64,000 nt of DNA from Clostridiales bacterium (GCA_022508465.1 JAFLVB010000002.1:628-64627); one strand, 5' to 3'. Counted from the first letter of the stretch, positions 34,104 through 64,000 are shown. Made by a program: numbers and translations. The notes: generated by a model from the letters alone, not told the origin.

Positions 34104-35528
34104 TCATGGTCTCATTAAGTCGGACAACGACTCGGATATCGATTTTTTACCTTGCCTGCCGTATTGATCTACCTGAGCTTTATTTTTAGCGCCGTGCGAT
34201 AAACATCCCGCACCGCCTATGCAGCCGCCGTCGCATGCCATGCCCTCTATAAAGTTGGCACTGAGCATATCCCTGCTCTTTCTGGCAAGTGCGGCACGGC
34301 ACTCCTCTATGCCGTTACAAACACACGCATTAAGCTTAAAGTCGCTACCATGTTCCATAAGCCCTTGCTCGACCGCACCCGCAACGCCGCCGCTGCCCGC
34401 AAAATTTCTGCCGTAGTACGATGCACTCTCTATCGTCTCTTCCTCGAGCGTGGAGATGTCTATGTCGCGACTGTCAAACAAGGCTTGAAGCTCCTCATAC
34501 GTCAGTACAGAATCGACATAGGGCTTTACGGTATCGAGCTGAATTTCGGCTTTTTTGGCGGTACACGGTCCTATAAACACCACTTTGGCGCTATCATTCT
34601 TATCCTTAAGATATTTGGCTATTGTCGCCATTGGGGACAGATTGCTCGACACATACGGCAATAACTCGGGATATGCCGACTTAATATACTTTACAAATGC
34701 CGGACAGCACGAAGAAGTCAAAAAGCCCTTTTCGGCAAGCTCCTCAGCCTCACTCTGCGCGACCATATCCGCACCAAGCGCTACCTCTACCACCTCACTA
34801 AACCCGAGTTTTTTAAGTCCGGATATCACCTGACCGAGCTTGGCATATGTAAATTGTCCGTAGATAGACGGAGCTATAACCGCATACAGCTTGTGCTCGC
34901 CGCGCAAACTCTTTTTGAGCATATCAATGACGTTAAGAATAAACGACTTATCCATAATAGCGCCAAACGGGCATTGATAAATACACGCTCCGCACGCAAT
35001 ACACTTGTCGGCATCAATAGACGCTATGTTTTCCTCATTGATGGAAATCGCCTTGATCTTGCAAGCGTTTTGGCAAGGGCGCTTGCGATTGACGATAGCG
35101 GAAAACGGGCATACGCTTGCGCATTTGCCGCATTCTATGCACTTGGTTTTGTCTATATGGGCAGCGTGAGCGTAGTCAAAGGAAATCGCCCCCGACTTAC
35201 AAACACTCTCGCAGCGGTGCGCAAGACAGCCTCTGCACGAAGCGGTGACATCATAGCCTGCCGCGGGACACTCATCGCACGCGATACTGATAACTTCAAT
35301 AACATTGTGGTTATCCTTGTTGCCGCCCATAGCGAGTTTGACACGCTTGGTCAAAATTGCGCGTTCTTTATAGACGCAGCAACGCATGGTGGGAACTTTG
35401 CTCGGGTGGATGATCTTGGGGATATCCAACAGATTTTCGAGCAGAGTATCGTTCCAAGCCTGCTTTGCCACTTCGCGCAGCACTCTGTATTTTAAATTTT
35501 CGACATATGTATCAAATTCTCTCGTCAT
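34104..35528 (-). CDS. [FeFe]-hydrogenase-like protein with N-terminal ferredoxin-type clusters (474 aa)
   Basis: H-cluster motifs TSSCCPAF, GPCTAKKAE and EGMACDGGCIGGAGC. Two CxxCxxCxxxCP motifs upstream. SD AGAGGAG present. Confidence 0.85.
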   Translation of the reverse strand: MTREFDTYVENLKYRVLREVAKQAWNDTLLENLLDIPKIIHPSKVPTMRCCVYKERAILTKRVKLAMGGNKDNHNVIEVISIACDECPAAGYDVTASCRGCLAHRCESVCKSGAISFDYAHAAHIDKTKCIECGKCASVCPFSAIVNRKRPCQNACKIKAISINEENIASIDADKCIACGACIYQCPFGAIMDKSFILNVIDMLKKSLRGEHKLYAVIAPSIYGQFTYAKLGQVISGLKKLGFSEVVEVALGADMVAQSEAEELAEKGFLTSSCCPAFVKYIKSAYPELLPYVSSNLSPMATIAKYLKDKNDSAKVVFIGPCTAKKAEIQLDTVKPYVDSVLTYEELQALFDSRDIDISTLEEETIESASYYGRNFAGSGGVAGAVEQGLMEHGSDFKLNACVCNGIEECRAALARKSRDMLSANFIEGMACDGGCIGGAGCLSHGAKNKAQVDQYGRQGKKSISESLSDLMRP

Positions 35529-35540
35529 TATAACTCCTCT

Positions 35541-35645
35541 TACTTTTTTTGTAAAAAAGTAAGCAAAAAACTTTTAAAGATATAGGTTTGAGCTGTAGCC
35601 CGAAAAGCAGGCTTGCCTGCCAAAAAACTTTTAAGGGAATATGTT
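35541..35645. repeat. Intergenic repeat element, single copy of the family also found at 61829-62130
   Basis: TACTTTTTTTGTAAAAAAGTAAGCAAAAAACTTTTAA ... GAGCTGTAGCCC ... GCAGGCTTGCCTGCC. The first 36 nt are near-identical to the copy at 62051, differing only by one extra T in the T-run. Confidence 0.8.
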
Positions 35646-35782
35646 TATAGTTCAAAATGCAAACTTGTTTGCTTTGCAATTATATTCTAACATAAAATAA
35701 AAAAAATTTCAACAAGAAATTACAGGAAATCTCGACATAAAATTTTATATACAAAAATGATTATAATAATCAATCTTTTTTA

Positions 35783-59705: not shown

Positions 59706-60212
59706 TTATATTGTTTTCATATCCGTTATTCCGAGTATATCTGCTTTATTTATTTCAATTATTATTGTTGTGTATTCAAGCCATAGCGCATGTCCATGTT
59801 TATATTCTTTATAATTAATATCCAATATTAGTTCTTTATTCTTTACGTATATTTTTTTTATTTTAAATCGTTTTGAATTACCGGTAGTAGAAAATATTAT
59901 AACTGCTTTGTCCGAAAAATATGTACCGTCATATTCTCGAAGTTTGGCACCCATTGAAGTTAAATAAGCAAAATATTCTTCTGAAAAAGCGGGATTGTCA
60001 TATGTATCACATATTTCTTTTAGCTCATCTAAAGAAGTAACTAATTCAAAAATTCCTTCCTCTGTATCTTGCCAACCAAACCTGCCTCCAAAAATATGAG
60101 CTTTATACCAAATCCTACCAGAAAGCCCTACGCCCAAACCCACGCCAAGTCCTATTGCCACAACTGCCAAGATAGATGAAACAACGATTATCCACTTCTT
60201 TTTCTTGCTCAC
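59706..60212 (-). CDS. Membrane-anchored protein of unknown function (168 aa), strongly AT-rich
   Basis: GTG start at 60212, 8 nt after GGAGG. N-terminal TM is WIIVVSSILAVVAIGLGVGLGVGL. I recognised no family. Confidence 0.55.
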   Translation of the reverse strand: MSKKKKWIIVVSSILAVVAIGLGVGLGVGLSGRIWYKAHIFGGRFGWQDTEEGIFELVTSLDELKEICDTYDNPAFSEEYFAYLTSMGAKLREYDGTYFSDKAVIIFSTTGNSKRFKIKKIYVKNKELILDINYKEYKHGHALWLEYTTIIIEINKADILGITDMKTI

Positions 60213-60435: not shown

Positions 60436-61815
60436 CTAATTCTTTTTTATATCGTAGCCGTCTTTTTTGTCGACAACGGTGTAGCCGAGGGCGGCTATTT
60501 GGTCGCGCAGAGCATCGCTAAGCGCCCAGTCTTTATTTTTACGCGCCTCTAACCTCTTGTCCGCAAGTTCTGCCACCTCGTCAGGGACCTCTATCTTCTC
60601 CTCCTGCGGGAGCGTGTCGAGGCGAAGTCCGAACACGGTATCGAACTTTTGCACAAGCTCGTAAATCTGCTTGGACGCAGGTTCTTTAAGCATATTCCAT
60701 AACACGCCGAGCGCGAGCGGAATATTTATGTCGTCGCTTATCGCATCGGTAAAATCTTTTTCGTACTTAGCAAGGGTTTCTTTCGGCGTTTCGGCTTTAC
60801 CGTTACGGTGCTCGTTTATCGCCGACAACAGCCTTGTATACGCCGTCTTAGCAGCGTCCATTGCGGCAAATGTAAAGTTGAGCGTCTTGCGGTAGTGCGT
60901 GTTGAGGCAGAAGTATCTGAACACCATTGGCGAGTAACCTTTTGCCTCGAGGTCGGCAACTGTATAAGTGTTGCCCAGCGACTTACTCATCTTGCCGCCG
61001 TCCACCTGCATAAATTCGCCATGCATCCAGTAGTTGACCGTTTGATGTCCTTCGAGCGCCTCGCTTTGCGCGATCTCGTTTTCGTGATGGACGGGGATAT
61101 GGTCGACGCCGCCTGTATGGATATCAAAGCGGTCGCCGAGATACTTCTTGCTCATTGCACTGCACTCTATATGCCAGCCGGGATAACCCATACCCCAGGG
61201 CGACGGCCATTGCATAATATGCTCCTTGGGCGCCTTTTTCCATAAAGCGAAATCGGCAGGGTGACGCTTTTCGTCGTTGACGTCAACGCGCGCGCCTGCT
61301 ATCTGATTGTCGAGGTTAAGTCCGCTCAGCTTGCCATATGTCGGGAATTTAGCTATATCGAAGTAAATTCCGTCGCTTGTCTCGTAGCCGTAGCCGAGGT
61401 CGACAAGTTTTACTACATAGTTAAGCATATCGTCGATATGCTCGGTCGCCTTGGCAATTATTTCGGGCTTGCCTATATTGAGCTTATTAAGGTCGTCCAT
61501 AAACGCCTTTGTATACATTTCGGCAATCTCGTAAACAGACTTTTGCTGTTCACGGCTCGCCTTAGCCATCTTGTCTTCACCCTCGTCGCCGTCGCTGAGT
61601 AGATGACCGACATCGGTGATATTCATAACGCCCTTGATCTTGTAACCGTTGTATTTAAGCGCACGCCTAACGCTGTCCATAAAGATGTACGCGCGCATAT
61701 TGCCTATGTGAGCGTAGTTATAAACGGTGGGACCGCACGAATACATAGTTACTGTTTTGCCAAGCGGCACGAATTCTTCCTTCTTGCGCGAAAGAGTGTT
61801 GTAAAGTTTTACCAT
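60436..61815 (-). CDS. cysS: Cysteine--tRNA ligase
   Basis: HIGN motif ([10 protein letters not shown]), KMSKS motif ([10 protein letters not shown]), and Zn-ligand context WHIECSAM. Confidence 0.96.
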
Positions 61816-61828
61816 AACTTCTCCTTGT

Positions 61829-62130
61829 TACTTTTTTGTAAAAAAGTAACCACCTACTTTTTTGTAAAAAAGTAGGCAAAAAACTTTTAATGTGGTTATA
61901 AACTGCTTATTTCTAAGCCCGGTCTTTAGCCCTATATGCAAGCTCGCTTGCTTACTTTTTTGTAAAAAAGTAGGCAAAAAACTTTTAATGTGGTTATAAA
62001 CTGCTTATTTCTAAGCCCGAGCTGTAGCCCTATATGCAAGCTCGCTTGCTTACTTTTTTGTAAAAAAGTAAGCAAAAAACTTTTAAGGATATATGCTCGG
62101 GCTGTTGCCCTAAATGCAGACTTGCCTGCC
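61829..62130. repeat. Tandem intergenic repeat array (98-bp period, about 3 units) with AT-rich perfect hairpins
   Basis: TACTTTTTTGTAAAAAAGTA occurs at 61829, 61855, 61953 and 62051. Units 61855-61952 and 61953-62050 differ at 3 positions. The third unit diverges after CTTTTAA and resembles the 35541 copy. Confidence 0.9.
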
Positions 62131-62151
62131 GCATAGCGACCTGCAATCGAA

Positions 62152-62562
62152 TTACAAAAATGACAGAACGTCGACTGCCTCATCGAGTGCCTTATACGCC
62201 TTGTCATATTCATCGGCAGGAAAAGCCTTCTTCATAGCCGTTTCTATTGTAGACAGTCTTGCGTCCAAGTATGCCTTGCCTGCATCGGTCAGCGAGTAGT
62301 AAACCACTCGTTTGTCGTACTGTTGCTTATCTTTTGTAATAAGCCCATCCTTAGCCATTTCGCTTGTTAAGAGCGCGAGATTGGTCTTGGCAAGATGCAA
62401 CGTAGTCATGATGTCCACGGGCGGCAAGCTTTTATCTCTGAGTAAGAATAAGATTTTGGTCTTGAGTGATAGAGTGTTTTTCGGTTTTCCACTCACGCTT
62501 TCGCACATGGTGGCACTACGCGTGGCAATTCTGAGCTCAACAAGTTTTTCGGCTAAATTCAT
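62152..62562 (-). CDS. MarR-family transcriptional regulator
   Basis: 136 aa with a wHTH pattern (ILFLLRDKSLPPVDIMTTLHLAKTNLALLTSEMAKDGLITK...DKRVVYYSLT). Confidence 0.8.
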   Translation of the reverse strand: MNLAEKLVELRIATRSATMCESVSGKPKNTLSLKTKILFLLRDKSLPPVDIMTTLHLAKTNLALLTSEMAKDGLITKDKQQYDKRVVYYSLTDAGKAYLDARLSTIETAMKKAFPADEYDKAYKALDEAVDVLSFL

Positions 62563-62960: not shown

Positions 62961-64000
62961 TTAGTTCCAGGAAGTGGGCACCCCATTAACATAACGCCAA
63001 TAGTTACCCGACTTTTTGGACTTAGAATAGTAGTAAACCGTGATGTCGCTTTCGAGCGAAACGCCAAGCGGGTTCCATTGCGAGCTTGCAGAGCCTCTAA
63101 AGTAAATAGCTCTCAACTTATATCTATCTGCTCCCTTGATGATAAAGAATGCTGAAGGAGAAACTTTTTTGAGAACCTGATCGGCAGCAGACTTGCTTTC
63201 GCTTCCCACAACGATCCACTCGAGGTTGTAGCACATATAGAAGGTTTGCGCGCCGATTTCCTTAAGGCTTTCAGGCAAGATAATGCTTTTAAGAGCTTTA
63301 CACTCACCAAAGGCATAACTGAATCCGCCGTTAATAGCCTCGTCTGCGCCCAAAGATTCCAACTTGCTGTTTTCGCCGAAGTTAACACTTTGGAGCGACT
63401 CACAATTGTTGAATGCGCCACTATAAATAGTCTTAACGCTATCGGGAATATTAATCGTTTTAAGATTTGTGCAACAATAGAATGCGCAAACATCGATGTA
63501 CTCACATATGCTGTTTTCTTCAAAGGTAATACTGGTCATTACACCGGCACTTTCAAACGCATACTTACCAATATATTTTACGGTATTGGGAATGACTATT
63601 TCCTTAATCGAAATACAGTATGAGAAAACACGATCCTCGATAGACGTAATTCTGCCAAGATTAATAGTCTCGAGAACCTTACATTGCTGGAACGCATTTT
63701 GGCCTATGTAAGTGACAGTATCTGGAAGATTAATAAAGATTAAGTCAGAACAACCGGCGAATGCATACCTACCTACATACTCTAAGGTTTCGCCGAGGAT
63801 ATCAACACTTACAAGTCTTGTACCGCTAAACGCAAAATCACCGATAGTGGTAACGCTGGCAGGAATCATAATGCTTGCTATCTTGGAGTTGTAGTAGAAT
63901 GCATACGGAGCTATCGAATACTGCATTCCGTTAATACTGTTTGGCAATGCAAGCGCATGATCGTCACCATTGTATCCGATAAGGAATGCTTCGTTTTCGT
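62961..64000 (-). CDS. BspA-type leucine-rich-repeat surface protein, 5'-truncated by the window edge
   Basis: LRR_5-type repeats (IGDFAFSGT.L, VGRYAFAGCSDL, IGQNAFQQCKVL, and others). The reading frame stays open upstream of the TTG at 63947 all the way to position 64000. Confidence 0.8.
   Translation of the reverse strand, partial: ENEAFLIGYNGDDHALALPNSINGMQYSIAPYAFYYNSKIASIMIPASVTTIGDFAFSGTRLVSVDILGETLEYVGRYAFAGCSDLIFINLPDTVTYIGQNAFQQCKVLETINLGRITSIEDRVFSYCISIKEIVIPNTVKYIGKYAFESAGVMTSITFEENSICEYIDVCAFYCCTNLKTINIPDSVKTIYSGAFNNCESLQSVNFGENSKLESLGADEAINGGFSYAFGECKALKSIILPESLKEIGAQTFYMCYNLEWIVVGSESKSAADQVLKKVSPSAFFIIKGADRYKLRAIYFRGSASSQWNPLGVSLESDITVYYYSKSKKSGNYWRYVNGVPTSWN

Follow-up and report, generated by a model that had tools for sequence, protein, structure and literature searches.

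A strain-variable insertion of a dispersed palindromic repeat at the regulator–cysS junction of a Clostridiales bacterium

In a 64,000-nucleotide stretch of DNA from a Clostridiales bacterium, analysed here as a whole and referred to as the window, the gap in front of the cysteinyl-tRNA synthetase gene cysS is occupied by A/T-rich hairpins repeated in tandem. This arrangement raises the question of whether the array controls the gene that it precedes or whether it is a repeat that settled at this site, and the initial annotation had offered both readings, namely a miniature repeat element that has multiplied here or a cis-acting element controlling cysS.

The array and the genes on either side

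The gene downstream of the array, cysS, encodes a cysteine--tRNA ligase of 459 aa (60436-61815, minus strand) and was identified from its ORF, the names of its homologues and the presence of Pfam tRNA-synt_1e in these homologues. Upstream of it lies a gene for a winged-helix regulator of 136 aa (62152-62562, minus strand), whose Pfam hits (PadR, HTH_27 and SarA/Rot) were weak and below the curated cut-offs. A gene for a BspA-type leucine-rich-repeat protein (62961-63947, minus strand) is located upstream of the regulator and was also present in an independent assembly (L001) and in two contigs from relatives (L007 and L008). The 336-bp gap between the stop codon of the regulator gene and the ATG of cysS is filled by the array, which as a whole spans 61829-62130 and is far above chance. 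Since cysS is on the minus strand, the array lies upstream of it in the minus-strand sense, and it is in this sense that its initial placement immediately upstream of cysS is correct.

A 20-mer (TACTTTTTTGTAAAAAAGTA) had been reported at four positions of the array, and we recovered all of them as exact matches on the + strand (61829, 61855, 61953 and 62051); when up to three mismatches were allowed, nine matches were obtained on both strands, compared with 0.03 expected from shuffles. Tandem Repeats Finder (TRF) detected a tandem array at 61855-62086 with a period of 98, 2.4 copies, 97% matches and a score of 436, and together with the direct-repeat comparison it bore out the two complete 98-bp units described previously, which occupy 61855-61952 and 61953-62050 on the + strand and differ at three positions. 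The terminal A/T hairpin (HP-a, 61827-61850), of the form GTTAC-T6-GT-A6-GTAAC, has an 11-bp stem and a computed RNA folding energy of -6.9 kcal/mol, and is devoid of the CA6C block. The core modules, all on the + strand, each join a hairpin to CAAAAAACTTTTAA: core module 1 (61853-61890) contains HP-b (61853-61876) and the motif at 61877-61890, with the first 98-bp unit beginning inside it at 61855; core module 2 (61948-61988) contains HP-c (61948-61977), the 14-nt arms of which are 93% complementary, and the motif at 61975-61988; and core module 3 (62046-62086) contains HP-d (62046-62075) and the motif at 62073-62086. The arms of HP-d are perfect over 14 nt (62046-62059 and 62062-62075), as had been claimed for the palindrome of the last unit, and the GC mini-hairpins were likewise present in the form described, GCAAGC-TC-GCTTGC, at 61938-61951 in unit 1 (GCAAGCTCGCTTGC) and at 62036-62049 in unit 2. 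The outer part of the insertion (62087-62151, + strand) is not tandem, reaches as far as the stop codon of the regulator gene and holds GGGCTGTTGCCC and the GC mini-hairpin GCAGACTTGCCTGC (62116-62129).

At the cysS end, two distances given in the initial annotation had to be corrected. The SD sequence AAGGAG (61821-61826, minus strand) is 5 nt, not 4 nt, before the ATG, and the 20-mer is separated from it by 2 nt, not 3 nt; as these 2 nt also pair, the 11-bp stem of HP-a abuts the SD directly with its base. The whole cysS spacer was 100% identical in L001, an independent assembly from another sample, indicating that the array is not an assembly artefact.

No sequence in the whole window reached the gathering score in Rfam, and a permissive scan (E≤10) of 61700-62300 returned nothing T-box-like, just generic hairpin noise, in agreement with the earlier statement that a T-box signature is absent. 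No sigma-70-like promoter was found on either strand of the cysS spacer, and the combinations of TTGAAA or TTGTAA with TTTTAA that were picked out by eye inside the array were rejected because they lack key −10 bases. As no sigma-70-like promoter was found inside it, the array must be transcribed if cysS still depends on the upstream promoter. On the sense strand, one A/U-rich hairpin followed by a U run scored as terminator-like, and no other did. On the + strand, antisense to cysS, the GC mini-hairpin of unit 1 is followed by TTACTTTTTT in a terminator-like arrangement; all terminator candidates of the window, both the 5-bp GC stems followed by this same sequence and the sense-strand A/U-rich hairpin, were weak. 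The array hairpins were computed as RNA at -7 to -13 kcal/mol, and RNA folding predicted an unpaired probability of 0.5-0.9 for the cysS SD, with the start codon also mostly unpaired. ORFs within the array relied on TTG starts inside hairpins, without an SD, and none joined the regulator gene to cysS; a coding potential of the repeat was ruled out by the 98-bp unit, which is not a multiple of 3, and by the variable loop lengths. A U.A-U triple helix formed by the T6 leader with the hairpin was discarded on geometrical grounds, by reasoning and not by computation, as a 1-nt linker would have to cross five base pairs.

Orthologous junctions and a second copy in the window

Relatives were fetched with the cysS protein, which yielded six related cysS genes at 78-88% identity (contigs L004-L009 and L161-L163) and placed the source, an uncultured member of the Clostridia, close to 'Firmicutes bacterium CAG:552'. 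In all of these relatives the gap between the regulator gene and cysS is 9-10 bp (TAAGGAGAAAATATG), without the repeat, and the stop codon of the regulator overlaps the cysS SD. Approximately 106 kb of their DNA contained no T6/A6 hairpin, no CAAAAAACTTTT and no module. Down to 78% cysS identity, the two genes at their 9-10-bp gap form a conserved regulator/aminoacyl-tRNA synthetase operon and, judging from the conserved gene order, the regulator gene is the ancestral operon partner of cysS.

Among strains whose cysS is 96% identical to that of the window, the junction itself differed. L002 has a gap of 128 bp with three hairpins, and L003 carries another mosaic upstream of cysS as well as an inverted copy (1587-1740), which follows the stop codon of cysS immediately and lies between cysS and the convergent mscL gene. 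The comparison of copy number among strains that had been suggested earlier gave 2.4 units of 98 bp in the window and in L001, against none in L002 and the differing mosaic of L003. The absence of the repeat in the relatives, together with its rearrangement in the 96% identical strains, indicates that the array is a recent and variable insertion at an operon junction and not a conserved leader.

The spacer between cysS and mscL varies as well. In the window it includes an ORF of 168 aa (59706-60212, minus strand) with a hydrophobic N-terminus, no Pfam match and its own TTGACA/TATGAT-like promoter (the region considered was 59706 with flanks to 60435). L002 shares the start of this spacer up to the end of its contig, and L003 lacks the 168-aa ORF and has the inverted repeat copy in its place.

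The repeat search and alignment revealed that the element occurs once more in the window, at 35539-35680 on the + strand, in the same orientation as at cysS. This second copy is composed of a hairpin (35539-35563), CAAAAAACTTTTAA at 35564-35577 and again at 35621-35634, and GC mini-hairpins at 35607-35620 and 35659-35672, and its positions 35545-35621 were 88% identical to 62054-62130 over 77 nt. As observed at cysS, the base of the hairpin abuts an SD (AGGAG, 35534-35538, minus strand), in this case that of an [FeFe]-hydrogenase large-subunit-like gene located downstream (34104-35528, minus strand; Pfam Fe_hyd_lg_C, E = 4.5e-62). Upstream of the copy, a consensus match identified a sigma-70-like promoter (TTGAAA, 17 nt, TG-n-TAGAAT; 35684-35712, minus strand) which, if real, would place the copy in a 5′ UTR; no terminator-like sites were found at this second locus. 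The copy was confirmed in an independent assembly, the contig of which (L166) starts inside it, and contig L003 starts inside the cysS copy. Such contig ends are expected of a multicopy repeat, and they illustrate that these elements break short-read assemblies. The genes examined at both loci are mostly on the minus strand and almost all 2-kb bins of the window (1-64000) had a negative GC skew, with a cumulative skew that falls steadily; together, these features are consistent with a single replichore.

The module, its distribution and its gene context

We defined a 36-nt module in which an A/T hairpin (nnTAC-T6-NN-A6-GTAnn, 11-bp stem) is followed by C-A6-C-T4; the hairpin is a palindrome of 24 bp, of which the 64 kb contain five copies at two loci. 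Covariation in the stem was evaluated in 156 distinct copies at the two outer pairs, which the search pattern had left free, and these were paired in approximately 85% of the copies, as T-A or C-G and as C-G, G-C or A-T. In agreement with this, a more general scan recovered the alternative complementary stems GTTAC, GCTTC, GGTTC and GCGC, all enclosing the same T6-NN-A6 core and accompanied by the same C-A6-C-T4 tail. The hairpin is conserved through compensatory changes. Because the letters of the stem vary with pairing kept, the constant parts of the module are its homopolymer runs and their spacing, and the compensatory change points to a nucleic-acid hairpin more than to a protein half-site. 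On its outer side the stem is flanked by unpaired, non-conserved bases, and on the other side by C-A6-C; GTAG was found solely inside stems, in some copies.

The repeat is dispersed across genomes. A scan of species-representative genomes with a 26-base pattern (TACTTTTTT-N2-4-AAAAAAGTA-NN-CAAAAAAC, with exact TAC/GTA required) located the module in at least 114 stretches. By their record names, the matches listed span Clostridia, Bacteroidota, Chloroflexota and Proteobacteria, and include several families of Clostridia, Bacteroidaceae, Chitinophagaceae, Omnitrophota and Syntrophomonadaceae. Many copies were present in a closed Dehalococcoidia chromosome and in an Acetobacteraceae MAG, the latter with GC-rich flanks, and the module also occurred in isolates, namely Porcipelethomonas ammoniilytica, chromosomes of Acinetobacter baumannii, and plasmids of Pseudoroseomonas cervicalis and Acidiphilium multivorum. 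No match was found in complete genomes of E. coli. Matches in Borreliella plasmids and in a Staphylococcus casei plasmid were set aside as A/T-rich chance similarity or as ambiguous. On the Acidiphilium multivorum plasmid pACMV3 (L165:600-745), a degenerate full copy annotated as a hypothetical protein sits between ABC permease and ATPase genes, another insertion between genes of one operon.

The module was also found in 21 viral contigs, phages among them, and the hairpin followed by CA6C is carried by contigs of giant viruses (NCLDV), one of which (L127) encodes a major capsid protein. In the NCLDV contigs L131 (514-727), L138 (1273-1395) and L127, the module lies between convergent genes and there are tandem arrays with a 30-31-nt period. 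The 6.6-kb ssDNA phage MG945182 of the Microviridae (L160:666-790) has one intergenic module followed by a GC-rich hairpin.

The filler of the window array (the GC mini-hairpin, the stretch starting with GGGCTACAGC and TTAAAAGTTTTTTG) was confined to this species. A metagenome scan for it gave two matches, and since the one inspected (L158) is inside a long ORF, both were treated as chance. Rfam recognized nothing but one tRNA in 15 related loci, and a literature search with literal module sequences returned nothing relevant. The family appears to be undescribed and is unusually widespread, and the insertion of a repeat at cysS is in itself ordinary.

Three forms of the element were distinguished: solo copies, head-to-tail arrays with lineage-specific filler, and inverted pairs with a GC-rich hairpin between them. 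The element of Proteobacteria and their phages measures 130-200 bp and has two inverted modules on either side of a variable GC-rich hairpin, with purine-rich and pyrimidine-rich outer flanks. The centres of full copies fold at -25 to -101 kcal/mol and are closed by CUUUUG/CAAAAG, directly followed by T5-7. A layout of A6, hairpin and T6 is typical of a bidirectional intrinsic terminator, and a GC-rich hairpin with a T run on both strands is present in the proteobacterial full copies. In Clostridia the module is found more often at the head of tandem arrays, in which the filler measures 100-170 bp (L010, L017, L023, L091, L107 and L120); to these belongs the 98-bp array of the window, with all its modules in direct repeat. 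The array of an uncultured member of the Clostridia (L017:810-1560) has five units with an alternating spacing of 144 and 163 bp, each headed by the module, and extends up to the SD of a hydrolase-like gene.

For 125 distinct copies, the 30 nt outside the hairpin were surveyed for the ends and starts of crude ORFs with a minimum length of 80 codons. A stop codon was within this distance in 42 of the 125 copies (immediately adjacent in eight) and a start codon in 13, of which six also had an SD. The copies are mostly intergenic, with a few overlapping ORF ends, and they show a preference for intergenic sites near gene ends. As gene ends outnumber gene starts, the arrangement at cysS is a minority configuration. 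Among the neighbouring genes of 167 copies we found no recurrent protein family and no transposase, Y1 transposases included; no ORF was found between inverted modules, and seven full copies showed no consistent direct repeat that could represent a target-site duplication, with element ends that are not sharp. Copies adjoining host terminator hairpins amounted to 11 of 126, compared with 4.9% in controls, an enrichment too weak for insertion next to such hairpins to be used as an explanation.

Origin of the array and comparison with known systems

Taken together, these observations make it likely that a non-coding, dispersed palindromic repeat of the REP/MITE-like kind was recently inserted into the regulator–cysS junction and subsequently amplified. 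The repeat would have entered a junction otherwise 9-10 bp long, and part of the insertion would then have been amplified locally to 2.4 tandem units of 98 bp. The family is probably selfish, and may have spread as selfish DNA through a trans-acting or recombination-based mechanism that recognizes the hairpin; since no transposase, target-site duplication or sharp ends were defined, mobility is something that we infer. At cysS, the element would have no dedicated regulatory role. Its insertion before this essential gene may have been tolerated, given a sense transcript with an accessible SD and without a strong GC hairpin and U run, and its orientation would let transcription from the promoter of the regulator gene read through. 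Effects on cysS would be incidental, through mRNA structure, processing or the loss of translational coupling, and they are possible because the array is co-transcribed if cysS depends on an upstream promoter. Of the two readings offered initially, that of a miniature element multiplied at this site is the one favoured by the second copy (35539-35680), the bare junctions of the relatives, the variation among strains and the at least 114 foreign loci. Cis-acting control of cysS as a dedicated or conserved function was not sustained, as the element adjoins unrelated genes, gene ends more than gene starts, and is missing from orthologous cysS leaders, an outcome that had been named beforehand as refuting a regulatory role.

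Several functional explanations bear on the same observations. The hairpin at the SD, or the whole array, may have been domesticated to act on the operon mRNA, where it could serve as a processing or stabilizing hairpin or as a ribosome-binding-site insulator that uncouples cysS from the regulator, and the number of units could tune expression between strains. The direct contact of the SD with the base of the hairpin, seen at the two loci of the window and at L002, L003, L017, L100 and L120, is consistent with such a role, as are the moderate stability of the hairpins (-7 to -13 kcal/mol), the largely unpaired SD, the transcription that the array must undergo for want of an internal sigma-70-like promoter, and the copy number that differs between strains. 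However, approximately 5-10% of the family copies are at gene starts compared with about one-third at gene ends, the copy at L003:1587-1740 is reversed and downstream of cysS, and the relatives do without the element, so that we regard domestication as rather unlikely. A leader dedicated to cysS, be it an attenuator, a riboswitch or a T-box substitute that senses cysteine or tRNA-Cys, would fit the position directly upstream of an aminoacyl-tRNA synthetase gene, the alternative pairings that are possible between AAAAGU, ACUUUUUU and AAAAAAGU, and the terminator-like A/U-rich hairpin with its U run on the sense strand. It is very improbable given the lack of an Rfam match, the missing element at all orthologous cysS junctions at 78-88% identity, the different structures among strains 96% identical in cysS and the occurrence of the same module beside the hydrogenase-like gene and unrelated genes of other phyla.

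The presence of the palindrome in phyla and viruses with unrelated neighbouring genes also speaks against an operator array, in which the 20-bp palindromes would be binding sites of the adjacent winged-helix regulator. Dimeric regulators of the MarR/PadR type bind palindromes of 16-20 bp, which together with the adjacency of the regulator gene would suit this explanation, but the relatives keep the regulator with no palindromes in approximately 106 kb of their DNA, the stem positions covary with no single half-site sequence kept, and the sites are downstream of the regulator gene, away from its promoter; of all the explanations we give this one the least credence. The constant homopolymer runs (T6, A6-7, A6 and T4), their fixed spacing and the variable stem letters would be compatible with an element that works at the DNA level, as a hairpin, cruciform or A-tract used by a universal host factor, as proposed for BIMEs. 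A nucleoid protein, gyrase or the replication machinery would be candidates for this factor and would explain the conservation across phyla, and the element is present whatever the direction of transcription, in giant viruses too. Against it, no factor was identified, the A-tract spacing is out of helical phase by inspection, and the patchy occurrence among close relatives does not suit a housekeeping role; we consider it unlikely, both as a DNA-level element in general and with these candidates in particular, less so than a dedicated leader.

Two observations weigh against a purely selfish repeat. The position of the hairpin directly against the SD at several loci could point to a role in translation or mRNA stability rather than to chance, and the near-identical 36-nt core found across phyla and giant viruses, which is unusual among selfish repeats, hints at a constraint that selfish DNA leaves unexplained. 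We tentatively propose, as a possibility that we hold with clearly less confidence than the insertion itself, that the 36-nt module is the unit of propagation of an undescribed, non-autonomous hairpin super-family that crosses phyla, phages, Microviridae and giant viruses. Such a super-family could spread by means of a hairpin-recognizing enzyme or a replication or recombination mechanism, and the module could act as a portable bidirectional-terminator cassette.

In practice, the insertion has consequences for annotation, since the array should not be recorded as a riboswitch or leader of cysS. What it marks is a strain-variable insertion by which a tightly coupled regulator/aminoacyl-tRNA synthetase operon is split, and it may be of use as a strain-typing marker and as a natural test of operon polarity. 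Short palindromic repeats are generally regarded as largely genus-specific; a core that is nearly the same in Clostridia, Proteobacteria, Chloroflexota, Bacteroidota, phages and giant viruses would be a useful handle for studying how such repeats move and whether terminator function travels with them from one genome to another.

Compared with the T-box leaders of Firmicutes, the array resembles them solely in its position upstream of an aminoacyl-tRNA synthetase gene, whereas it has no specifier or T-box sequence, has no Rfam match and is not conserved in orthologues. Mycobacterial MIRUs, intercistronic tandem repeats reportedly described by Supply et al. in 1997, are closer to it, as both consist of 40-100-bp tandem units in an operon junction, in one orientation and in strain-variable number; however, MIRUs are not known to have an A/T hairpin, and their short ORFs overlap the stop and start codons of the genes on either side, whereas no such ORF links the two genes across the 98-bp units. 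MITEs share with the family a length of 100-200 bp, a non-coding, intergenic and multicopy nature and an occurrence common to hosts and their phages, and full copies (L030 and L056) have inverted terminal hairpin and CA6C modules, an inverted arrangement that the window array lacks. The family differs from them in that no target-site duplication or parent insertion sequence was detected, the centre of the element varies within one genome and the core is common to several phyla, whereas among 1.4 million bacterial MITEs a census detected no cluster common to different phyla (PMC11602168). Pithovirus M1 and M2 are palindromic, MITE-like non-coding arrays for which no transposase was identified and recombination was proposed as the means of expansion (PMC10664404); by description they resemble the module family in their palindromic non-coding units in arrays and lack of a transposase, but they are confined to pithoviruses.

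By analogy, the nearest concept for the family is the REP/REPIN class, in which GTAG- and CGTC-tagged super-families have short conserved tags shared across several phyla (PMC3733652, PMC3337134). REP palindromes carry the GTAG or CGTC tag unpaired at one end (PMC3733652), whereas the module has no such unpaired tag; its core is an A/T homopolymer and not GC-rich, with a fixed C-A6-C-T4 extension, and the family reaches Clostridia, phages and giant viruses. Furthermore, no RAYT association was seen among the neighbours of 167 copies, and the units of the window are arranged head to tail instead of inverted. The likeness lies in a short palindrome (24 bp here, compared with 20-40 bp in the REP class) that is non-coding, extragenic, present in several copies and mostly downstream of genes; in units that are often inverted around a spacer to form larger hairpins, as in the proteobacterial and viral copies; and in sub-families that have alternative complementary stem bases and keep a short motif conserved across several phyla.
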